From contig JAVHQC010000033.1 of the NCBI GenBank assembly GCA_036170915.1, positions 224,001-288,000 on the forward strand: a DNA stretch of 64,000 nucleotides, read 5' to 3'. Below the pieces are notes generated by a model, which saw only the letters and a list, made by a program, of their open reading frames with translations, did not search any database and had not been told where the DNA came from. Shown piece by piece: positions 4,753-17,980 of the stretch (its first letter is position 1; every line of letters starts with the position of its first letter). The DNA is from Cyanobacteria bacterium auto_48_18. Its GTDB lineage: Bacteria > Cyanobacteriota > Vampirovibrionia > Obscuribacterales > Obscuribacteraceae. The translations under genes were made by a program, and so were the position numbers.

Positions 4753-5562
4753 ATGGCTTTTGAATTATTGCCCAATGCCCACGGCAGCTCGCCCAGCGAG
4801 TTTGTGGCTTTCTTTCCTGATAATTTTGAGGCAATTGAAAATCCACCGCTCTTAGTGTTTCTACATGGTTCAGCGGAGCGTGGTACAGATCCGGGATTAG
4901 TGCTCAAGGGTCTCGATACGGTTTTTCAAGATTTGCAACTACCTGCCCTGGTGATTTTTCCGCAATGTGATTCGCATCATCGCGCTTTTTACGGCGCCAT
5001 GGACAATCGGGTGATGCAGGCTATAAACCAAGTCATTTCTGAGTACGCAGTTGACCCGAGCCGAGTTTACCTGGTGGGCTATTCAATGGGCGGCTCTAGC
5101 AATCTCTGGATGGCCGCTAAACACCCAGGGGCTTTTGCCGGCAATGTTTGTATTGCGCCAGGCATTACTTGGCTTGGCGCGGAACTTCCACCTGGATTGC
5201 CTGATGAAGACAAAGAACTATTCGAAACTATGTTTCTTGCCCCAGATAGGCCCGACGCCATAGCTAGGCGACTGGCTAGCCTGCCGAGCTGGTTTTTGCA
5301 AGGCACAGAAGATTTGCCTTGCCCGATTGACGAAACGCGCGCCGTTGTGAATGGTCTGCGTAAACTTGGCTACACTCCAATTGAAACCGAATATGATGGC
5401 ATGGGACATGACACACTGATCATGGCTTTGCAAGAAGAAGGGCTATTCGACTGGTTATTGAGTCAGAGAAGCAATGCTGTCGCCAGCGATTTTGGTGTTG
5501 GTGTTAGCCATGGTTCTGGTCACAATTCTGATCATGGAACTGGAGAAGACGGTCATGTCTGA
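4753..5562 (+). CDS. alpha/beta hydrolase (predicted peptidase/esterase)
   Basis: VFLHGSAERG, PQC, nucleophile elbow GYSMGG, acid QGTED, His in GMGHD. Confidence 0.85.
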   Translation: MAFELLPNAHGSSPSEFVAFFPDNFEAIENPPLLVFLHGSAERGTDPGLVLKGLDTVFQDLQLPALVIFPQCDSHHRAFYGAMDNRVMQAINQVISEYAVDPSRVYLVGYSMGGSSNLWMAAKHPGAFAGNVCIAPGITWLGAELPPGLPDEDKELFETMFLAPDRPDAIARRLASLPSWFLQGTEDLPCPIDETRAVVNGLRKLGYTPIETEYDGMGHDTLIMALQEEGLFDWLLSQRSNAVASDFGVGVSHGSGHNSDHGTGEDGHV

Positions 5563-7969
5563 TTTTGAAAAGTTAGGCGTTTTCTATCTTGGTCGAAAGT
5601 TTGACTTAAACAAAGATGATAGCCAGCAAAGCAATACAGAACTGGTGCTCTATGACGCCAAAGACCTGGTCACGCACGCAGTTTGTATTGGTATGACCGG
5701 TAGTGGCAAGACCGGCCTCTGCCTTGGCTTGTTAGAGGAAGCTGCTATCGATGGCATTCCTGTTATTGCCATAGATCCAAAAGGAGATATCGGCAATCTA
5801 CTGCTTACTTTTCCACAATTGCGCGGAGAAGATTTCTTGCCCTGGGTCGACGCTGATGCGGCTAAAAGAAACGCTCAGAGCGTTGAAGAATATGCCACTA
5901 CTCAAGCAAAACTTTGGCACGATGGTCTGGCAAAAAGTGGGCAAGACGGCGAGCGCATAAGCCGATTGAAGGCAAGTTGTGATTTCAATATTTATACTCC
6001 TGGTGCTAGTTCTGGCTTGCCTGTATCAATTCTCAACTCTTTGAAGAAGCCAGACGAAACCATTGCTGAAGATCCTGATTTACTGCGTGAAAAAATTCTT
6101 GCTGCTACAACTTGCATACTTACTTTAGTTGGAATAACCGGCGACCCCTTGCGCAGTCGCGAGCATATTCTCATTGCCACCATTATTGCCGACTGCTGGA
6201 AAAATGGAAGAGATGTGGATTTGTTAGATATGGTCCACTTGATTCAGAAGCCACCAATGAAGCGAGTTGGAGCGCTTGATTTAGAGTCGTTTTATTCGGC
6301 CAAAGAGCGATTTGACCTTTCAATTTCAATCAACAATATTTTTGCCGCACCAGCTTTTGATGCCTGGCTTACCGGAGAACCGCTAGATATCGGCAGCTTT
6401 CTCTGGAACAAAGAAGGCAAACCTAAAGTTTCTATATTTTCAATCGCCCATTTGGGCGACACCGAGAGAATGTTTTTTGTCACCCTACTTTTAAATCAGA
6501 TTTTGGAATGGATGCGCAGTCAATCGGGCACCACCAGTCTGCGTGCGATTTTATACATGGACGAGATATTTGGCTACTTCCCTCCTGTAGCTAATCCGCC
6601 GACGAAAACTCCACTATTGACTCTGCTCAAGCAAGCCCGCGCTTTTGGATTAGGACTGGTACTAGCCACGCAAAACCCTGTGGACCTTGATTACAAAGGT
6701 TTGTCTAATGCTGGTACCTGGTTTATCGGCAGATTGCAAACCGAGCGCGATAAGATGCGGGTAATTGAAGGTCTGCAAAGCGCCTCGCAAGAAGCGGGCG
6801 GCAAGCTCGACGGCAACTCACTTTCAGACGTGCTCGGACGGCTTGGCAATCGTGTCTTTCTCATGAACAATGTACACGAAGACGGCCCTGTCACATTTAA
6901 GACCAGGTATACAATGTCTTACTTGCGCGGGCCGCTCAACCGCAAACAAATAAAAACATTGATGGATCCGATTAAAAAGGCTGTGGCGGCTGAAGTTGAT
7001 AGCAAGGCTGAAACCAAAGCTGCACCAGCAGTAAGTGCTGCTGTCAAATCGTCGCGACCGCCAGTGGTGCCCCCAGAAATTCCGCAATTTTTCATTCCGG
7101 CTGATGTGGCATCGTTTGGTAATCCGCCAGACAAAGTCTACATGCCGTTTTTGTTAGCCTCAGCATCCATCCGTTATGTCGATTCTGGTGCAGAACTTGA
7201 CCATACGGTGGACAAAACTTATTTGATACCAGTAACTGATAATTCAATTCCGGCCGACTGGTCGAAAGCAAAGTCTATAAAGGTAGACATTGCAAAATTG
7301 CCCACATCAGGCGATTCAACTTTCAGATTTGAAGAGCCTGCCTCAGCTTTGACCAAACCTGCTAACTTCAAAATCTGGAACAAAGAGTTCGCAACCTGGC
7401 TTGCCGCCAGCGTGCCCTGCAAAATACTGTCTAGCCCAGCCACTGACGTGACCAGCAAGCCAAATGAAATAGAGCGTGACTTTCGCATTCGCTTGCAACA
7501 ACGTGCTTTTGAAAAACGTGATGAAGCAGTGACAAAGTTGCGTGAAAAATACAACGTACGCATCAAGGCTCTGCAAGAAAGGCTTCGTATAGCCGAGCAA
7601 AAAGTGGCGGCCAAACATGCAGAAGCAAGACAGCACGAACTTAACTCAGCCCTGGCTATTGGCAGTACCGTTCTTGGTGCCTTTATGGGTCGCAAGGCGG
7701 TAAGTACCTCGACCATTAATAAGGCGGCTAGTGCAGCACGCACAATGGGCAGAGCCGCTAAACAAAAAGAAGATGTGGGTCGAGCTGAAGATAATGTGGC
7801 TAATTTAAATGAGCAATTGCAGAGTTTAAGTGCCGAGTTTCAAATTGAGACGCAAGCGATTGCAGCAAAGTTTGATCCGCTCAATGAGAAGCTTGAGATT
7901 GTCTCTGTGCCTGCGAAGAAGACTAATATTGCGGTGAAGTTATTGGGGCTGGCCTGGGTGGTTAGCTGA
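5555..7969 (+). CDS. HerA/FtsK-superfamily (DUF87-like) ATPase with C-terminal coiled coil
   Basis: Walker A GMTGSGKT, IDPKGD, Walker B ILYMDEIFG, ARAFGLGLVLATQNPVDLDYK. Probable start ATG 5555 has a GGAGAAG RBS and overlaps the upstream stop by 8 nt. Confidence 0.88.
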   Translation: MSDFEKLGVFYLGRKFDLNKDDSQQSNTELVLYDAKDLVTHAVCIGMTGSGKTGLCLGLLEEAAIDGIPVIAIDPKGDIGNLLLTFPQLRGEDFLPWVDADAAKRNAQSVEEYATTQAKLWHDGLAKSGQDGERISRLKASCDFNIYTPGASSGLPVSILNSLKKPDETIAEDPDLLREKILAATTCILTLVGITGDPLRSREHILIATIIADCWKNGRDVDLLDMVHLIQKPPMKRVGALDLESFYSAKERFDLSISINNIFAAPAFDAWLTGEPLDIGSFLWNKEGKPKVSIFSIAHLGDTERMFFVTLLLNQILEWMRSQSGTTSLRAILYMDEIFGYFPPVANPPTKTPLLTLLKQARAFGLGLVLATQNPVDLDYKGLSNAGTWFIGRLQTERDKMRVIEGLQSASQEAGGKLDGNSLSDVLGRLGNRVFLMNNVHEDGPVTFKTRYTMSYLRGPLNRKQIKTLMDPIKKAVAAEVDSKAETKAAPAVSAAVKSSRPPVVPPEIPQFFIPADVASFGNPPDKVYMPFLLASASIRYVDSGAELDHTVDKTYLIPVTDNSIPADWSKAKSIKVDIAKLPTSGDSTFRFEEPASALTKPANFKIWNKEFATWLAASVPCKILSSPATDVTSKPNEIERDFRIRLQQRAFEKRDEAVTKLREKYNVRIKALQERLRIAEQKVAAKHAEARQHELNSALAIGSTVLGAFMGRKAVSTSTINKAASAARTMGRAAKQKEDVGRAEDNVANLNEQLQSLSAEFQIETQAIAAKFDPLNEKLEIVSVPAKKTNIAVKLLGLAWVVS

Positions 7970-8049
7970 AGCACAGAAACATACTCGGAACCCGGGCGTC
8001 TTAATTCTTATCGTTAATTTGCAGTCTATATAACCCGAGTGTAGCCACC

Positions 8050-9515: not shown

Positions 9516-10670
9516 TCACAAACAATGAACTCCGCCTTCTTGATTAACCAGCGCGCGATAAAGCATCTCATAACGCGGCACAATAAGCTCCGCCGAAAAA
9601 TTTCTCTCTGCGCGTAGTCGCCCAGCTGAGCCCATTTTAGCTCGCAAGGCACTATCGCTAATTAACTTTTCGGCAGCGCGAGCCAGGCCGTTGACGTCAC
9701 CAAAGGGAAGCAGAAATCCGGTTTCATTATCGACAACAACTTCAGGTATGCCACCAACTGCAAAAGCGACACTGGGGCAATCGAAAAACATGCCTTCAAG
9801 AATGCTCAAGCAAAAACTCTCGCTTTCAGAGGTGAATAAAGTCATGTCGGCAGCTTGCAAATATTCTTCTACTTCGAGTACATTTTCTCGGATAATTATA
9901 TTGTTGCTGAGGCCCAGCCGCTCTGCTTCATCTTCAAAATCAGAAAAGTTACCACCAGCTAAAATTACTAATTTGAATGAGTCTCGCGGCTTGATGCGCG
10001 CTATGGCTTCAAGTAATAAATCTATTCGTTTGACGGGTCGCAAATTGGAAGAATGCAAAATCATCACTTCTTCACCAATGCCTAGTTCTCGCCGTGTCTC
10101 TTCTCTTGAATGTTTGGGTGGGTCGGCTTCGAAGAAATTGTGAATTACTTCCATTGGTCCGTCGAAACCAAGCACCTTTTCGCTCTCTGTTTTAAGGTAG
10201 GAAGAGACTGTAGTGACAGCGTCAGATTGAGTTAATGCGTGGTGAATAGCTGGTCCGTAACCGGGATCTCGTCCGAGTAGAGTGGTGTCGGTGCCGTGCA
10301 GTGTGGTGACAACTTTGGGAAGTTGGTCAGGTCGCAACATGCAGCGAGCAAGAATTGCAGCGGTTGCATGGGGCACCGCGTAATGCACGTGCATAATGTC
10401 GAGATTGTGATTACGGCTCACTTCTGCCATTTTTACAGACAACGGCAGGGTGTAATCAGGATATTTAAAGAGGCCGTAGTCGTTCACGGCAACCTGGTGA
10501 AAGTAAATGCGAGGAGTTTTAGCTGCCAGACGAAAGGGCCGCTCGTAAGAGATAAAATGCACTTCGTGACCACGTTGGGCAAGCTCCCGGCCAAGTGTGG
10601 TGGCAATTACTCCGCTGCCGCCAACTGACGGGTAACAGGTAATGCCAATTTTGAGTAAATCGTCTGCCAT
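9516..10670 (-). CDS. bshA: N-acetyl-alpha-D-glucosaminyl L-malate synthase (GT4)
   Basis: Signature motifs KIGITCYPSVGGSG, LFKYPDYTLPL, HVHYAVPHA, TTLHGTD, HSSNLRPVKR, SESESF. Confidence 0.93.
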   Translation of the reverse strand: MADDLLKIGITCYPSVGGSGVIATTLGRELAQRGHEVHFISYERPFRLAAKTPRIYFHQVAVNDYGLFKYPDYTLPLSVKMAEVSRNHNLDIMHVHYAVPHATAAILARCMLRPDQLPKVVTTLHGTDTTLLGRDPGYGPAIHHALTQSDAVTTVSSYLKTESEKVLGFDGPMEVIHNFFEADPPKHSREETRRELGIGEEVMILHSSNLRPVKRIDLLLEAIARIKPRDSFKLVILAGGNFSDFEDEAERLGLSNNIIIRENVLEVEEYLQAADMTLFTSESESFCLSILEGMFFDCPSVAFAVGGIPEVVVDNETGFLLPFGDVNGLARAAEKLISDSALRAKMGSAGRLRAERNFSAELIVPRYEMLYRALVNQEGGVHCL

Positions 10671-10671
10671 G

Positions 10672-11412
10672 CTAAAAATTCCGTGCTCCCTTGCCTGCTT
10701 GTGTCAGCGACTTATAAACCAGCGGCTCATTTGGGTAAAGCGCAATGGCATATTCGATACCAGCTCGCGCACCAAGTAGTCGCGCTCGTGTCATTTGCAA
10801 ATCGATATAATTGCGAGTGGCGCTTTGTGAACCATGCGCTTGCATGGCAGCCGTCCAAGTAGAAATAATTTCTGGTGACGACACGTCAATATAAATTGGC
10901 GTGGTATCTCTTGGCTCGCCATCAGGAGTGACCGTATAGAAAAACAATTGTTCAATGTTATGGGCGGCTTGGTCAATCAGTTCTTTTAATCCGGCGTAGC
11001 GAGCCAGGCGTGAAGCATCTCGCACCAGTTGACCTAACCGTGCATGATCACTGTGTTGGTTTTCCACTGGCGTTGGGGCCATCACAGTTGTTGGCTTGAA
11101 GCGCCTGATCAACTCAGCAAGTTTGATAGCGTGAGCGGCTCGTACTTCCAGGTGCGCGTCACCATCCAGTTCGATAAATTCAATTGTTGCCCCAAGTATT
11201 TTTGCGGCAGTGGTGGCTTCTTGGGTGCGTTCTTCTGAGCTGCCGTTTGTAGCAGCTTCCCCACGAGAAGTCACAACAAAGTGCACCTTGCGGCCGGCGC
11301 TTGTTTCTAAGGCGACAACTCCACCGCAGCCGAACTCAATGTCGTCGGGATGGGCGCCAAAAACTAAAATAGAATTGCTGGTTTTATCAGAGAAGTTCAG
11401 TGTAGGCCTCAT
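10672..11412 (-). CDS. bshB1: GlcNAc-malate deacetylase BshB1 (PIG-L family)
   Basis: GAHPDDIEFGCGG, RGEAATNG, HSDH Zn motif, terminal AHGSQ. Stop lies 1 nt before the bshA start. ATG 11412 chosen; the ORF track starts at 11433. Confidence 0.85.
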   Translation of the reverse strand: MRPTLNFSDKTSNSILVFGAHPDDIEFGCGGVVALETSAGRKVHFVVTSRGEAATNGSSEERTQEATTAAKILGATIEFIELDGDAHLEVRAAHAIKLAELIRRFKPTTVMAPTPVENQHSDHARLGQLVRDASRLARYAGLKELIDQAAHNIEQLFFYTVTPDGEPRDTTPIYIDVSSPEIISTWTAAMQAHGSQSATRNYIDLQMTRARLLGARAGIEYAIALYPNEPLVYKSLTQAGKGARNF

Positions 11413-12157
11413 CAGATCGGTCAATGGTATCACGGGTCAAATAATTGATCTCGGGCGCGTCAGCGTGATTTAAATAGGCTTGTTCGCCCACTCCGGCAAC
11501 ATAATGAGTGCAGTGTAGTACAGATTGCATCCAACCGAGACGACTATCTCGCGTGGGACTGATTTGTCTTTTAGCGAAAGGAGTTAGTGGAACGTCAGTA
11601 AATTGGTCGCCCCCGTCGTGCAATTTAAAGGCTCCATCTATATAACGAGCGCGCACGGTTTCGTTTTCGTATGGCACATCAACAAAGAAATCGGTAATGT
11701 CCACAGCCGACTGCCGCATTGCCGGGTCGCTCGAACGCACTACCCTTATTCCTTCCAGTAAACCCATTTTGTTATACATCTGCAGGCAAAAATCACTGAT
11801 GGTCGAAGCTGATGTGTCCTTAAAAAGATTGATTAATGCATGGTCAACATAGTTGGGTAACTGAGAAATTGTTTTTTCTTGCCAGCCATCCACAATTCTT
11901 TTGAGATAGAGCGGCGAAAATTTGCGCTGTATTTTATTCTCGAAAGCAAAGTTTAGTTGCGCCGGCACACTGGTGGTGCGGTGCGGCAAGATGGTTCTGG
12001 TTTCTCTAGGGTCATGGTCACTATCGTGATAAAAGAAAACGATTTCGCCGCCTATTTCACTTTGCACACGCCTGGCCGCGGTAATTTTTGCCACCAGAAA
12101 GCGCTTAGGGAAAAATCCACAAGGTTGCTGACCGAAACAAATGACGGGAGAGCTCAT
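11387..12157 (-). CDS. short (256 aa) BshC-like putative cysteine-adding enzyme
   Basis: FGQQP...AKITAA...IVFFYHDSDHD and ISPTRDSR...HYVAGVGEQAYL match the BshC motifs TGQQ/HQ...K...VFWxxxEDHD and SPN...R...YVGGPGExxY. AAGGAG RBS; TGATG coupling to the upstream symporter. Confidence 0.72.
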   Translation of the reverse strand: MSSPVICFGQQPCGFFPKRFLVAKITAARRVQSEIGGEIVFFYHDSDHDPRETRTILPHRTTSVPAQLNFAFENKIQRKFSPLYLKRIVDGWQEKTISQLPNYVDHALINLFKDTSASTISDFCLQMYNKMGLLEGIRVVRSSDPAMRQSAVDITDFFVDVPYENETVRARYIDGAFKLHDGGDQFTDVPLTPFAKRQISPTRDSRLGWMQSVLHCTHYVAGVGEQAYLNHADAPEINYLTRDTIDRSDEAYTELL

Positions 12158-13866
12158 CAGGCGTACTCCTTTGCTGTTTTCTGCTGATTGCTTATCAGCG
12201 TCTGTAAAATCAGACTGAAGCATATGCAAGCCACACAGCCGATTAGTGGATACCAGAGATAGGAGATTGTCAAATTGAAGTACATTGTGAAGACAAGCAT
12301 TTGTGCCGTCAGAGCCGCCCAGAAGATAGCACTGCCCTTAACTCGCTTGATGAAGAATCCCACTAGAAATAGGCCGAGCATTACGCCGTAGAAAATTGAG
12401 CCAAGAATATTCACTGCTTGAATCAGATTTTCAGCCAGATTTGCGCATAAAGCGAAGCCGATGGCTACAAATCCCCACAACGCAGTGAACCATTTTGTGG
12501 CAGTGAGCGACTGGGCATCTGTGGCATCTTTTCTGTACAGGTGCCGATAAAAATCGATGGTGCTGCAGGTGCCGAGAGCGTTTAGCTCTGCGGCTTTAGA
12601 GGCTAAGGCAGCGGCAAAGAATGCTGCCATGAGCAAGCCGATTACTCCGTGAGGTAATTCACGCAATATAAATGTGATGAACACGTAATCAGCATCGTTG
12701 GCTTTTGCATCCGGATTAATACGCGCTAGTTCTTTTGTGGCAGCAGTGCGAACAATTTCTGCTTTTTGCTCTGCTGCCGCGGCAGCAACAAATGCTGCGG
12801 TAGCGGCCTCTTTGTTGCCGTTACGCCGTGCTTGCAGCCACGAGCCTAAATGACTTCTTGCCTGGCTGCGGGCAACACTAAAATCATTTTGATAAGAGGT
12901 CATTGTCGGATTATTTTTGTGGGTTTCCAGAAAACGATTGGCGGTGGCATCGAAAAATAATGGTGGTGCTTGAAACTGATAGAAAACAAACATCAGCACT
13001 CCAATAGAAAGAATGCTAAATTGCATGGGAATTTTGCAAACAGCGTTGAACAAGAGCCCGAGCCGACTTTCGCGAATTGAAGACCCTGAGATGTAACGTT
13101 GCACTTGTGATTGATCGGTGCCGAAATAGGAGAGCATGAGAAAGGTTCCGCCTAAAAGTCCTGACCAGAATGTGTAGCGTTCATTCACATTGGTAGAAAA
13201 ATTGACGGCATTGAGCTTGTGAAAACCACCAGCGATATCAACTGTGTCGCTTAAGCTGAGACCAGGTGGAAGTTTAGCGATTAACATGCAAGCAGCAGTA
13301 ATCATGCCGATGAAGATAATACCCAGCTGGTATTTTTGCGTCACCGTAACGGCGTCGCTGCCTCCCATGACGGTGTAAATAATGACAATTACTCCTGAGA
13401 CAATAATGGTCAAATTCAGTGGCCAACCGCAAACACTGGTAAGCACTATGGCCGGTGCATATATTGTCAAGCCCGCACCCAAGCCTCGCTGCAGCAGGAA
13501 AAGACCCGCTCCAAGCAGTCGTGTTTTGCTGTCGAATCGGTTTTCTAAAAATTCGTAGGCGGTATAGACATTTAGTTTTTGGAAGTTTGGCAGAAAGAAA
13601 ATGGCGATGATGATCAGAGCGATTGGTACACCAAAATACACTTGAATAAAACTGAGCCCACCAAGATAGCCTTGGCCGGGAGTTGACAGAAAAGTAATTG
13701 CACTGGCTTGAGTAGCCATTACCGAGAGGCCAATGGCGAACCAGGGTGTTTGTCCACTACCTTTTAAGTATGCTTTTAAATCGCGCTTCTGCCTCGTGCT
13801 CCAGACGCCGTAGATGGCAATACTAAGTATCGAGACAACTAGCACCACCAGATCTAACGTGTTCAT
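12157..13866 (-). CDS. sodium:solute symporter (SSS/SLC5 family)
   Basis: GLSVMATQASAITFLSTPGQGY, TAYEFLENRFD, YFGTDQSQVQRY, about 13-14 TM helices. ATG 13866 overlaps (ATGA) the stop of the small upstream ORF. Confidence 0.92.
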   Translation of the reverse strand: MNTLDLVVLVVSILSIAIYGVWSTRQKRDLKAYLKGSGQTPWFAIGLSVMATQASAITFLSTPGQGYLGGLSFIQVYFGVPIALIIIAIFFLPNFQKLNVYTAYEFLENRFDSKTRLLGAGLFLLQRGLGAGLTIYAPAIVLTSVCGWPLNLTIIVSGVIVIIYTVMGGSDAVTVTQKYQLGIIFIGMITAACMLIAKLPPGLSLSDTVDIAGGFHKLNAVNFSTNVNERYTFWSGLLGGTFLMLSYFGTDQSQVQRYISGSSIRESRLGLLFNAVCKIPMQFSILSIGVLMFVFYQFQAPPLFFDATANRFLETHKNNPTMTSYQNDFSVARSQARSHLGSWLQARRNGNKEAATAAFVAAAAAEQKAEIVRTAATKELARINPDAKANDADYVFITFILRELPHGVIGLLMAAFFAAALASKAAELNALGTCSTIDFYRHLYRKDATDAQSLTATKWFTALWGFVAIGFALCANLAENLIQAVNILGSIFYGVMLGLFLVGFFIKRVKGSAIFWAALTAQMLVFTMYFNLTISYLWYPLIGCVACICFSLILQTLISNQQKTAKEYA

Positions 13867-14006
13867 ATGCCGAACTCCGTTAAAACAATAAGTAGCGACA
13901 CCCACATAACAAAACTGGCTAATACAAACAAGTAGGCACCCTTCCAAGTTTTAGGAAATGGCAATCCGGTGCTTTCTGTTTCTTCTATTTCTTCCAATTC
14001 ATTCAC
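13863..14006 (-). CDS. 47-aa single-TM membrane peptide (SSS-associated small protein), not in the ORF track
   Basis: Manual translation MNELEEIEETESTGLPFPKTWKGAYLFVLASFVMWVSLLIVLTEFGI*. GTGA overlap with the upstream stop and ATGA overlap with the downstream start. Confidence 0.8.
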   Translation of the reverse strand: MNELEEIEETESTGLPFPKTWKGAYLFVLASFVMWVSLLIVLTEFGI

Positions 14007-16552
14007 TTGCCCATAGCAATCATGTTTGCCAGCAGTCTGTATGCGCCTGGTACGCCGGCGGGCAATTGACGGAAAAATGACAGGCCCGTATAGATGTAGT
14101 GCCCTTTGCCATACTGAGCTACAAGCAGTCCGCCCTTGAGGGGAGCTTCGCCTCTATCATTGCAAGCGATCAGGGGAGTAAACTGCGGGTCCCATTGATT
14201 GGCAAAATAAAGGCCTCGCTCTTGTACCCAACCGTCAAAGTCAGCGGCGGTGAGTTTGTTAGGAGTATTCAAAAGTGGATTTTCGGGGGCAAGAAACGTG
14301 ATTTCTGCTTTTTTATCTGTGACTCGTCCGCTGGAAATATGCAGATCATATGGAGCAATCTTTTCAGTCACCAACTTGTCAGGACGATTATATTGAGTAA
14401 TCACCGTGCCACCATTTTTGATGTATTCAAAAATTGCGGGCAAATCGGCAGCGATGCTTTTGCTAACGTTAAAGGCTCTGACACCAATAATAATGGCGTC
14501 GTATTTTTGCAATTGCTCTAGTGTAAGTTTGCTATCGTCCAGTACAGTGACGGTGTATCCCATCTGCTGAAGATTTTGAGTCAGGCTGTCTCCGGCACCT
14601 GGAATATAACCAATGGTCTTACCGCGAGTCTCAAGATCAATACTTACGGCCTGCATCACCGCTGGTGCTTGCATTAGTTGCCTTGGAATATGCAAATAGT
14701 TGATTTCTTCTCGTTTACTGCTGTATTGCACACCATTTATTTCTGCGACAGCCGCTATCTTGGCTGTTGAAGCCTGTGGTGGGGCCGTGATACTAAATTT
14801 GTAATGCTCGCGTTGTCCGGCGCTGCTTAAATTGATTTTGTGGGTGGCTGGAGTAATTTTCCAGTCGCCAGGGCCTTGCAAACTTAGAGTGCCGCTTGAG
14901 CCACCACGCGCTGCTGTCACTTCCACTTCGACCGTTTTTGTGGTGCCAGGGGTGAATACCATGGTCTCGAAGTTGAAATGTACAAAAACCGGCGAAATGA
15001 CATCAATGGGGCGCTTAGATACCTCACCGCTTTCATTTTTTGAGATTGTCACCGGTTGGTCATGAACTATAAGAGTTTGCCCGTTAACTTCAAAGATTTC
15101 TTCAATAGGAAAAGATGGCGCATTCTCAGCAGTTCCGATCAGGTCAGGATTTTCTGCTGCAAATAATCCGGCAGTTCCTTCTAAGCGCAGCCACCACGGC
15201 TGAGCCAAAAGTGTAGACGCCGGGACCGTCACTTCGGTATCCCAGCTGGCCTCTTTCGCTGAATCAACGATGAGCTGTTTGTTAACTTCTTTATCTAGGG
15301 CTGGATAGCGTACGGCAACAAGTTTGACCGTAACATCAGCACTTTTAGAATTTCGCTTTACAACGTGATGAAGCTTGACCTGCTCTCCAGGCAATACTTC
15401 GTTTTGAGAGATGGTAGTTTGAACTTCAAGTCCAAGGCATGCCTGCAGTATGCCATCGAGAAGTGCACGTTTTTCCACAAATACCGAATCTAGTTGTGAG
15501 TGAGGCAGGGCTGCTAGTTGATTTCGCATTTTCAGCAAGGCCGGCACGCTGGCAGACACATCATCAGGCTTAAAGTTGGCGATAATCTCATCTGTCGATT
15601 TTAGAACAGCGTCGCCACCGGCCACTCGCTTCCAACTGGTATCAATACCATCCATAATGTCTTGAGTAGCCGCTTCGCCATCAAGAAGCTGAAAAGATTC
15701 AGTGCGTGGGCCTGGTGCAATTGGCATTTTGAAAGTATCAAAGCCTTGCGTCTTATGCATAGCGCGACTTTCACCGGCGATGTCCACAAAGGCTTTGCCT
15801 GAGACGGCATCTATGCCACCAGATTCGATTTTTAAGATTTTGGCGGAAGTGACTTTATCTCTCTGCCATGGTGACGTGTTCCACAATATGCGCTTGGGCT
15901 GCCAGGGCTCTAGATGCAATTCAGGAAAAGCATTTTTGTCTCCTGCAAGTTTAAATGCTTCCAAAGCCAGCACCGTTGAGGCCGTATGGTGCCCATGGGT
16001 GCCACCAGGGCTGGGTGAAAATCGCGTTATTAGGACATCAGGTTTAAATTGGCGGATGATACGCACCATGTCCGACAAAATTTCTTTTTTATTCCATGCT
16101 TCTAAAGTATCGACATAGCTTTTCGAAAAACCAAAGTCGATGGCGCGAGAGAAAAATTGCTGTGCACCGTCAATGTGTCTTGCCGCCAATAGTTCTTGCG
16201 TGCGTGCGATGCCCAGCTTTGCGCCGAGGTCGGGGCCAAGGACGTTTTGACCACCATCACCTCGTGTCAGTGAAAGATAGGCAGTGCGGTAATTGCGACC
16301 GCGCGATAAATAAGTAAGCAATTCGGTATTTTCATCATCTGGGTGGGCCGCAATATAAAGCGCGCTGCCCATCTGACGAAAACTTTTGAGGTTTTGAAGG
16401 ATAACTGCAGGAGTTTCTTGTTTCATTTCAGTTCCCAGAACCGCACTGCCGAAAAAAGACGCCGCGCAAACAAACGCACAGCTTAATGCGCAAGCTATTG
16501 CACGGCGCCATTTTCTCGATAGTTGCCAATTGAAATGGTCGGCACCAATCAT
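14003..16552 (-). CDS. exported LmbE/PIG-L family deacetylase/amidase with beta-sandwich region and C-terminal class I glutamine amidotransferase-like domain
   Basis: Signal-like N-terminus, AHPDDE, LSLTRGDGGQN, RAIDFGFSK, HGHH. C-terminal IGYIPGAGD...WVQERGLYF...FFRQLPAGVPGAYRL. Confidence 0.9.
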   Translation of the reverse strand: MIGADHFNWQLSRKWRRAIACALSCAFVCAASFFGSAVLGTEMKQETPAVILQNLKSFRQMGSALYIAAHPDDENTELLTYLSRGRNYRTAYLSLTRGDGGQNVLGPDLGAKLGIARTQELLAARHIDGAQQFFSRAIDFGFSKSYVDTLEAWNKKEILSDMVRIIRQFKPDVLITRFSPSPGGTHGHHTASTVLALEAFKLAGDKNAFPELHLEPWQPKRILWNTSPWQRDKVTSAKILKIESGGIDAVSGKAFVDIAGESRAMHKTQGFDTFKMPIAPGPRTESFQLLDGEAATQDIMDGIDTSWKRVAGGDAVLKSTDEIIANFKPDDVSASVPALLKMRNQLAALPHSQLDSVFVEKRALLDGILQACLGLEVQTTISQNEVLPGEQVKLHHVVKRNSKSADVTVKLVAVRYPALDKEVNKQLIVDSAKEASWDTEVTVPASTLLAQPWWLRLEGTAGLFAAENPDLIGTAENAPSFPIEEIFEVNGQTLIVHDQPVTISKNESGEVSKRPIDVISPVFVHFNFETMVFTPGTTKTVEVEVTAARGGSSGTLSLQGPGDWKITPATHKINLSSAGQREHYKFSITAPPQASTAKIAAVAEINGVQYSSKREEINYLHIPRQLMQAPAVMQAVSIDLETRGKTIGYIPGAGDSLTQNLQQMGYTVTVLDDSKLTLEQLQKYDAIIIGVRAFNVSKSIAADLPAIFEYIKNGGTVITQYNRPDKLVTEKIAPYDLHISSGRVTDKKAEITFLAPENPLLNTPNKLTAADFDGWVQERGLYFANQWDPQFTPLIACNDRGEAPLKGGLLVAQYGKGHYIYTGLSFFRQLPAGVPGAYRLLANMIAMGK

Positions 16553-16564
16553 TTTTAATTTACT

Positions 16565-17434
16565 TTATTTCAGTGTAGACATGAGCTCGGCATTCAATCT
16601 TACGTAAGCAGCGTCGTTGGCTTTCTCAGCTAATTCGGTTGAATGTTTCGAAGCTTCGATGGCACCAGCTTTATCACCCAGCTTGGCTAGAATTTGGGCT
16701 TTAACATAAACCATATAGAAGGCGTCGCGCTCTGCCACAGCAGCGTCAATCCATTTTTTTGCTTGCTGCAAATCTTTGCCATGAGCATAGTAGAACTGAG
16801 CTGCCTGGAAGTATGGCTTTTCTTTCGCATCAGATGCCATTACGGTTTCAATTTGCGAAAGTAATTTGTCGGCGAAATCAACTTCCAATTTGATTGGCAC
16901 TGTTGTTTTGTCCCATGACAAATTTAAGAGTGATGAATTTTCGCGAATGTCATTGAATTCAATTGTGAATGTTTCAAGTGCCTGAGTCACTTTCACTGGC
17001 TTGGCTTTAAAGCGGATGATGTCTGACTTTTCATCATACTTATAAGCTCCCCATTGTTCAGCGCCTTTGTTGATAATGATGGTCCATTCGTCTTTGCCTG
17101 GAATAGTCATCAATGCATAAGTTCCAGCAGCAATATCATTGCCGTTTAACTTAACGGGAGTGCTGAAAATCACTTTAGTCGCTTGGTTGGCACCAGTGCG
17201 CCAGACTTTATCAAAAGGCACAACGCCGCCGAAAATGTCACGACCTTTTGCGCTTGGTCGCGAATACGAAATTTCAATATCGGTCAGCCCGACTCGTTGC
17301 TTGATTGTGCAAGCGGGGCTAGGAGCTGGAAATTGAAGCTTTTGTTCAGCAGCAGGTTGCGCCATCACTGTGGAACCGAATAGCATTGCGCAGCCGGTGG
17401 CGGCTATTGAAAGAGCGATTGTTTTGGAATTCAT
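16565..17434 (-). CDS. DUF2911 domain secreted protein with C-terminal TPR-like helices
   Basis: Signal peptide; PSP...IEISYSRPSAKGRDIFGGVVPFDKVWRTGAN...GTYAL. Confidence 0.9.
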   Translation of the reverse strand: MNSKTIALSIAATGCAMLFGSTVMAQPAAEQKLQFPAPSPACTIKQRVGLTDIEISYSRPSAKGRDIFGGVVPFDKVWRTGANQATKVIFSTPVKLNGNDIAAGTYALMTIPGKDEWTIIINKGAEQWGAYKYDEKSDIIRFKAKPVKVTQALETFTIEFNDIRENSSLLNLSWDKTTVPIKLEVDFADKLLSQIETVMASDAKEKPYFQAAQFYYAHGKDLQQAKKWIDAAVAERDAFYMVYVKAQILAKLGDKAGAIEASKHSTELAEKANDAAYVRLNAELMSTLK

Positions 17435-17476: not shown

Positions 17477-17980
17477 TTACTTGTTTTTTGCTTCTAAAAA
17501 TTTGCGACGCTTGTTTTCACGTTCTGCTTGCAGCGCGGGGCTAATTGAACATTCAGTATTCTCGAAAGAGAAAATCTCGCCGGACGGGATATTCCAATTT
17601 TGGTCAATGATCTCTCCCGTTTTTTTATACTTTAGTTCAGCTGCCACTTCTTTTCCTGCGCACGATGAATCCCACTTCAGGGCCCAGGTTCTAAATGCCA
17701 GTAAGACGGCATCAAGCTCTTTGCCTTTTTCTGTGGCGTGGTATTCATAGCGGTCAGGGCGGGTGCTGTAGCGTCGTCGTTCGATAATTCCGTCTTCTTC
17801 AAGTTGTTTTAGTCTGCTAGAAAGGCAGTTTGATGCCATGCCTGTCTGCGCTTGAATTTCTTCGAAGCGTCGCACACCCATGGCCAGCTCTCGCATAATC
17901 AGCAAGGCCCAGCGGTCACCAACTGCACAAAGTGCTCGTGCAATCGGGCAAATACTGTCAAAATTATCGTCCCAGCCCAC
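17477..17980 (-). CDS. HxlR/DUF24 winged-helix transcriptional regulator
   Basis: CPIARALCAVGDRWALLIMREL..G.RRFEE, LSSRLKQLEEDGII, YEYHATEKGKEL. Carries the conserved N-terminal Cys. Confidence 0.92.
   Translation of the reverse strand: MGWDDNFDSICPIARALCAVGDRWALLIMRELAMGVRRFEEIQAQTGMASNCLSSRLKQLEEDGIIERRRYSTRPDRYEYHATEKGKELDAVLLAFRTWALKWDSSCAGKEVAAELKYKKTGEIIDQNWNIPSGEIFSFENTECSISPALQAERENKRRKFLEAKNK

Follow-up and report, generated by a model that had tools for sequence, protein, structure and literature searches.

Gene content of the locus

We identified a run of six genes on the minus strand of the window, the whole stretch of 64,000 nucleotides analyzed here. They encode a DUF2911 protein, a large PIG-L hydrolase, a sodium:solute symporter, a half-size BshC-like protein, a small PIG-L deacetylase and BshA. 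The DUF2911 protein (16565..17434; PF11138, E 3e-56) has a weak C-terminal TPR match, and the large PIG-L hydrolase (14003..16552; 849 aa, PF02585) has Mca as its best NCBIfam match, at 47 bits far under the cut-off. Judged by eye, both N-termini are signal-peptide-like, that of the hydrolase being hydrophobic. The symporter (SSF; 12157..13947) scores over the cut-offs of PF00474 and TIGR00813. At the other end of the run, bshA (9516..10670) encodes a GlcNAc-malate synthase with 408 bits against TIGR03999 (cut-off 273.7), and among its best relatives of solved structure is one deposited as N-acetyl-alpha-D-glucosaminyl L-malate synthase (E 4e-85). The BshB-like deacetylase before it (10672..11433; PF02585, E 3e-23) is closest in NCBIfam to TIGR04001 BshB1, at 134 bits under the 182.5 cut-off; these coordinates are those of the longest ORF, and the real start may lie a few codons later.

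The half-size gene occupies 11387..12157. The original prediction described a 256-aa ORF with its own ribosome-binding site, directly before bshB and bshA, that carries the motifs VICFGQQP, AKITAARRV, IVFFYHDSDHD, ISPTRDSR and HYVAGVGEQAYL. On translation we recovered all five motifs in an intact frame with no internal stop, the natural stop lying 27 residues past the last of them, and both bshB and bshA follow downstream on the same strand. A Shine-Dalgarno-like AAGGAG (12171-12166, minus strand) is found 8 nt 5' of the ATG, inside the last symporter codons, and one base is common to the symporter stop and this ATG; the two genes may thus be translationally coupled.

The GC content of the cassette (47.1%) is within the spread of the genome (47.9%, sd 1.3), and a recent arrival is not supported by this measure. 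There is no Rfam match between window positions 8000 and 19000, promoter-like sites are at chance level (12 vs 12.1), and terminator-like sites number 15 vs 10.3 +/- 3.1. An HxlR-family regulator is encoded upstream of the DUF2911 gene on the same strand (window 17477-17980, minus); it was matched in 1 of 80 related loci, most of which end before this point. On the plus strand, positions 5474-7969 encode an 831-aa HerA/DUF87-like ATPase whose C-terminal part is long and helical; it is unrelated to the cassette.

Conservation of the cassette

The same gene order (DUF2911, large PIG-L, symporter, half-size gene, bshB, bshA) recurs among the best 80 of 554 confirmed loci, which by title are mostly from Verrucomicrobia and Obscuribacterales/Melainabacteria, the latter being nearest to the query. 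The symporter gene is present in 78 of the 80 loci (absent from one, one too short) and bshB lies downstream in 73 (absent with room in five, too short in two). bshA was found in 70 (absent with room in one, too short in nine), as was the large PIG-L gene (absent from one, too short in nine), and DUF2911 was matched in 62 (absent from three, 15 too short).

Several loci depart from this arrangement. The half-size gene directly adjoins bshA, with no bshB between them, in loci L036, L041, L043, L060 and L075 and in genomes G003, G004, G005 and G063. A stand-alone 235-aa PIG-L is encoded elsewhere in G003-G005, and G063 (95% complete) has the large PIG-L only and no small BshB. A divergent member (L086 5875-7553, and L085) shares 42% identity with family protein P0127 and is followed by a small PIG-L gene; the ORFs listed within the 6 kb flank of L086 include no bshA or upstream module, and its flanks hold a 1,900-aa repeat protein and, by eye, riboflavin-like genes. 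In rare cases the half-size gene is fused in one frame to the symporter, BshB or BshA (L047 4291-6774, proteins P0391-P0400), and several of these fusions look like frameshift or read-through artifacts.

Distant relatives of the 849-aa PIG-L (~28-34% identity) are encoded on a Bacillus sp. F19 plasmid (L102, 2927-9520) and an Aminobacter plasmid (L103, 856-9379). Both have as neighbors a ROK gene, an ABC transporter and an annotated argininosuccinate lyase. The lyase-like enzyme could strip fumarate from a malyl glycoside, and the two may be candidate loci for the breakdown of GlcN(Ac)-malate or bacillithiol.

Structural relationship to BshC

The AlphaFold model of the half-size protein is of high confidence (pLDDT 92.6, pTM 0.90). 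Its longest helix has 17 residues, and the protein therefore has no long coiled coil. Foldseek against the PDB returned a sole match at E<=0.001, B. subtilis BshC (4WBD; E 1.3e-10, TM 0.62). A second aligner, run with the predicted model against 48,161 chains, also placed 4WBD at the top (Z 19.2, rmsd 2.6 A, 238 of 256 residues, chain range 82-520), followed by class I LysRS (Z 13.3), with all others at Z <9. The structural match to BshC that had been proposed as a check on the original prediction thus ranks first in both fold searches. PDB sequence searches with the protein or with a 114-sequence profile gave nothing at E<=10, so that of these searches only those by fold reached BshC.

Profile-profile comparison with canonical BshC (91 proteins, thinned by hand from 120 listed) yielded probabilities of 91.5, 94.0 and 94.9 over 217-226 collinear columns, against 0.3 for the reversed-template control. 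Sequence identity to canonical BshC is 15-18%. The half-size protein scores 13.1 bits with PF10079, for which the cut-off is 27, and has no NCBIfam match, as anticipated for a divergent, minimal BshC that standard HMMs miss; PF10079 is reached at E<=1 by 17 of 114 family members (best E 0.0032). In the ESM Atlas a PF10079 cluster scored 0.91; ranked above it were two unnamed clusters in which Verrucomicrobiota is the commonest recorded phylum.

The model also matches four unnamed proteins of 239-248 aa in a viral structure library (A0A6J4EHY4, A0A6B9SW24, A0A6B9STS8 and A0A411BJX6; E 2e-6 to 8e-4, TM 0.40-0.55). A class-I-like domain of comparable size also stands alone in viruses.

Conserved core and missing parts

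Canonical BshC has 48 positions that are conserved in at least 90% of the 91 sequences, and 16 of these are identical in the half-size consensus (G9, Q10, Q11, K24, F41, D47, H48, D49, E52, G132, S200, R206, Y219, G222, E225 and Y228). All 16 fall within the 35 near-invariant positions of the aligned core, and in the family consensus the BshC core is kept as GQQ, K, DHDxxE, S...R and YxxGxxExxY. More than half of BshC is missing. The view that the Rossmann core had been retained and the coiled coil lost is correct on both counts, but the coil is not the sole missing part, as ~82 N-terminal residues and ~38 residues in the connecting region also have no counterpart. By sequence, there is no equivalent of P498, Q503, E504, R505, G517 and H535 of canonical BshC (the P...QER motif and terminal His), and the last 20 residues do not map onto post-coil BshC. 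By eye, R242 may correspond to canonical R378.

The half-size protein has no PF24850 match, and we found no separate coiled-coil partner in the genome, so a split gene was rejected. The sole weak PF24850 match is an ORF among outer-membrane/lipid A genes, which by eye looks like Skp/OmpH. The family has invariant residues of its own that are different or unconserved in canonical BshC, among them H44, D45, S46, K86, C124, R148, W209, S212 and H218.

We searched for the adenylation motifs of MshC and class I aminoacyl-tRNA synthetases, using the patterns of HIGH and KMSKS. A HIGH-like HxG[HN] is present in 2 of 198 family members and KMS in none, and in canonical BshC HIGH and KMSKS-type motifs each occur in 1 of 91 sequences. 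The N-terminus is in register with the genome's own GluRS, in that PxG precedes the HIGH position and a GG-strand-[EH]D[TS]D follows the same pattern; PKRF occupies the HIGH register. Net charge is near neutral (family median 0, half-size protein -4), and tRNA binding gains no support from it.

A family of half-size proteins

A search restricted to 140-448 aa recovered 6,805 half-size homologues, of which the best 120 have 254-289 aa and are 70-100% identical. Where sources name the close relatives, they are called 'hypothetical protein'. The proteins of the loci have 252-292 aa in 82 of 82 cases (median 258). When 1.84 billion representatives were searched with a profile, 255 matched; the best 150 are mostly fragments, those near full length have ~253-268 aa, and none is a protein of ~540 aa. 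Searching at 470-2,000 aa identified 10 longer matches among the best 7,999 candidates scored; nine carry Pfam families of the neighboring symporter, BshB or BshA, one carries none of these, and PF24850 is found in none of the ten. The homologues are thus short rather than full-length, the outcome on which the original prediction had been made to depend.

Compared with the closest locus (L001), dN is 0.046 and dS 0.44, giving a dN/dS of ~0.1; four further comparisons were saturated at synonymous sites. A pseudogene was rejected, as the 'TAA inside' flag in genome G197 is the natural stop past residue 254.

Distribution and transfer

Among 85 genomes of the host's order, 38 have the half-size gene, in single copy. 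bshA scores over its cut-off in 36 of the 85, all of them among the 38 carriers, and in none of the 47 genomes that are without the half-size gene. In one of the two remaining carriers a partial bshA lies at the end of a contig, and in the other the half-size gene is near a contig end. Canonical bshC was detected in none of the 85 genomes, and positive controls matched. In a Verrucomicrobia-centered sample of 161 genomes, from the phylum of genome G085, bshA occurs in eight: seven with the half-size gene and one (G159) with a canonical bshC. The two forms were never found together in the genomes searched. It had been suggested that a gene of this kind could account for genomes with bshA and no bshC; it is present in 36 of 36 genomes with full bshA in the host's order and in seven of eight in the phylum sample.

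The genomes that carry the large PIG-L gene are exactly those with the half-size gene, 38 of 85 in the order and 7 of 161 in the phylum sample. As it co-occurs as perfectly as bshA does, these counts reflect one cassette inherited as a unit and not independent events, and the genomes counted are themselves kin. The DUF2911/large PIG-L/symporter module was not found in G159. There, the 521-aa canonical bshC takes the slot before bshB-bshA, in the order methyltransferase-bshC-bshB1-bshA. The methyltransferase gene directly before bshC-bshB1-bshA (L081 723-3823) is possibly a candidate N-methyl-bacillithiol synthase.

Half-size proteins of the two phyla are ~70% identical, and this identity together with a common gene order in two distant phyla points to horizontal transfer. 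In a quick tree, from which L086 was left out as a near-copy of L085, Melainabacteria-titled and Verrucomicrobia-titled rows are mostly apart; its outgroup branches are long and it does not give the direction of transfer. Carriage by phage was rejected, as none of 34 candidates from viral contigs was confirmed as a relative, and so was carriage by plasmids, with no relatives in 72,556 plasmids.

Redox partners and other thiol genes

We did not find YpdA/Bdr, BrxA/B or BrxC in the organism's own genome (86% complete), and YpdA scored over its cut-off in none of the 85 genomes of the order, with up to 22 candidates scored per genome. Sub-cut-off matches with YpdA as best family occur in four of the 85, all cassette carriers, and in none of the 47 cassette-free genomes. 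These flavoproteins (L089, L090, L091 and G079:C167) score 258-274 bits against a cut-off of 340 and are candidates for a divergent bacillithiol reductase. Scoring of all candidates recovered YpdA from G159, which has the canonical bshC, and from none of four half-size genomes. That the known reductase and redoxins were not found suggests another reductase, recycling through the hydrolase-symporter module, or a product other than bacillithiol.

Glutathione synthetase was over its cut-off in none of the 85 genomes, and sub-cut-off, glutathione-synthetase-like ATP-grasp genes were seen in 14 (L092-L094 and 11 more; up to five per genome, ~200 bits or less, cut-off 299). Given these sub-cut-off genes, we draw no exclusion pattern.

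Predicted function

In the established pathway, as set out in PMC5790435 and PMC4360819, BshA makes GlcNAc-malate and BshB takes off the acetyl group. The step that remains is an amide bond to cysteine, and the half-size protein is the only candidate for it in the cassette. We infer that it is probably a minimal, self-sufficient BshC that adds cysteine to glucosaminyl-malate. BshA and BshB are predicted to supply glucosaminyl-malate, and the protein would attach L-cysteine to the free amine of this compound, to yield the antioxidant bacillithiol or a close derivative. The predicted site is a Rossmann pocket of the class I aminoacyl-tRNA-synthetase type, with Q10, Q11, K24, D47, H48, D49, E52, S200, R206, Y219, G222, E225 and Y228. 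A DxD motif is kept after the second strand of the half-size protein; in synthetases, DxD at this place lines the amino-acid pocket.

Since PKRF stands in place of HIGH and there is no KMSKS, transfer from a pre-activated cysteinyl donor is favored. Canonical BshC, likewise without HIGH and KMSKS, favors the same conclusion: reviews of 2015-2018 have its reaction as undetermined and not reconstituted in vitro (PMC4360819, PMC5790435, PMC6178380), and in PMC5790435 it is assumed to need an activated cysteine whose identity is not known. If the protein is a cysteine ligase, then by analogy Cys-tRNA(Cys) would be the lead donor, with about an even chance of being the right one; self-adenylation with non-standard motifs would come second, at noticeably less than an even chance.

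The upstream genes are weakly suggested to have a part in turnover. Their position, the weak Mca-like match and the signal-peptide-like N-termini seen by eye are consistent with a role in which the large PIG-L, the symporter and the DUF2911 protein would cleave off the sugar-malate part on the outer side of the cytoplasm and take it up again. We speculate, as an extended scenario that is unlikely to hold in all its parts, that a tRNA-dependent minimal BshC supports a bacillithiol metabolism free of the known reductase and bacilliredoxins, in which the thiol is exported oxidized or conjugated, the secreted PIG-L cuts it and the symporter re-imports the sugar-malate. The cassette would have moved between Verrucomicrobia and non-photosynthetic Cyanobacteriota, giving a thiol that surveys missed.

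Alternative explanations

Being half as long as BshC and scoring under every cut-off, the protein might be taken for what decay or truncation has left of a full-length bshC, but this is refuted by the length distribution and purifying selection. There are 6,805 homologues of near its length, the 82 locus proteins are all of 252-292 aa, dN/dS is ~0.1, identity is ~70% across two phyla, and none of the 10 longer matches has PF24850; a fragment has next to no probability. The fold also invites comparison with a class I tRNA-synthetase-like paralogue that has an unrelated job and is merely in the operon, for which class I LysRS (Z 13.3 over 209 residues), the unnamed viral proteins of 239-248 aa (TM 0.40-0.55) and the good N-terminal register with GluRS can be cited. 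BshC, however, outscores LysRS by 6 Z units and aligns to a larger share of the model, GQQ, DHDxxE and GxxExxY are kept where HIGH and KMSKS are not, and bshA is over its cut-off in 0 of 47 genomes that are negative for the gene, so we consider such a paralogue very improbable.

The absence of more than half of BshC, together with the view in PMC5790435 and PMC4360819 that BshC may depend on an additional protein or cofactor, is compatible with the half-size protein being one subunit, inactive alone, to which another protein supplies the N-terminal, coiled-coil and QER functions. We regard this as quite unlikely, given that the genome yielded no separate coiled-coil gene, the cassette holds no spare small gene among ORFs of at least 90 aa, and the protein is modeled by itself as a compact fold with high confidence (pTM 0.90). 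A protein with the same fold and acceptor could also place a different amino acid or acyl group on glucosaminyl-malate, making a new metabolite akin to bacillithiol, which the hydrolase-symporter module would handle extracellularly. Such a product is rather unlikely: it would fit the failure to find the known reductase and redoxins, the missing QER motif and H535, invariants that are the family's own, such as H44 and H218, and the tie to a module not found in G159, but the common polar core is intact, canonical bshC is replaced gene for gene, and a YpdA-like gene occurs in four cassette genomes and in 0 of 47 cassette-free ones. A minimal, self-sufficient BshC remains our preferred reading.

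Significance

PMC6282198 counts Verrucomicrobia among the lineages in which no thiol has been documented or predicted. The bacillithiol gene surveys of PMC6282198 and bioRxiv 2025.07.06.663066 both demanded similar query and subject lengths; the half-size family would fail this demand and exposes a blind spot. Five Verrucomicrobia names had no match in 10 supplements of PMC6282198. In titles and abstract openings of the literature, a body of text that mostly leaves out subscription papers, we found no short BshC and no bacillithiol in Verrucomicrobia or Obscuribacterales.

The half-size variant is new for proteins of the BshC kind, and it predicts a thiol where none was predicted: in a minority of Verrucomicrobia (7 of the 161 genomes sampled) and in 38 of the 85 genomes from the host's order. 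With a naturally short form at hand, the residues essential for catalysis can be narrowed to about a dozen common ones. If the reaction is right, the coiled coil, N-terminal helices and QER motif of Bacillus BshC would be dispensable for the chemistry. The protein is also small enough to suit donor screening and crystallography, and so makes an old mechanistic question easier to test.

Comparison with known systems

MshC (3C8Z) carries out the same step in an analogous three-enzyme thiol pathway and has a class I Rossmann fold, to which the half-size model aligns at Z 7.5 (CysRS, Z 8.4). MshC is ATP-dependent and homologous to CysRS, according to PMC6178380. Unlike MshC and CysRS, the half-size family has no HIGH or KMSKS, and it is far closer to BshC.

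The catalytic domain of class I LysRS (1IRX) is the second-best fold (Z 13.3, 209 residues, chain range 19-294), and GluRS has PxG and DxD in register with the half-size protein. In contrast to both, the half-size protein has no anticodon-binding domain, PKRF for HIGH and no KMSKS. Cyclodipeptide synthases, small class-I-like enzymes that have neither HIGH nor KMSKS, take aminoacyl-tRNA as their donor. They offer, by analogy, a mechanistic precedent for tRNA-dependent transfer, and were not among the top 50 matches of the fold searches.

The closest known system is BshC itself (YllA; 4WBD, TIGR03998, PF10079 and PF24850). With ~540 aa, it is about twice the length of the 256-aa protein, which by sequence is without the coil, the N-terminal 82 residues, QER and H535 and stays below every curated cut-off. 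BshC is required in vivo for bacillithiol, GlcN-malate building up where it is missing, and forms a homodimer in solution. PMC4360819 assigns the coiled coil to dimerization and describes a second, ADP-binding pocket. The half-size gene further differs from canonical bshC in its DUF2911/large PIG-L/symporter module and in that YpdA and bacilliredoxins were mostly not found. The half-size protein is nevertheless BshC-like in fold, core residues and gene slot: the two have a common Rossmann core with connecting domains (Z 19.2), share 16 near-invariant residues and the lack of HIGH and KMSKS, and their genes take the same place before bshB-bshA.
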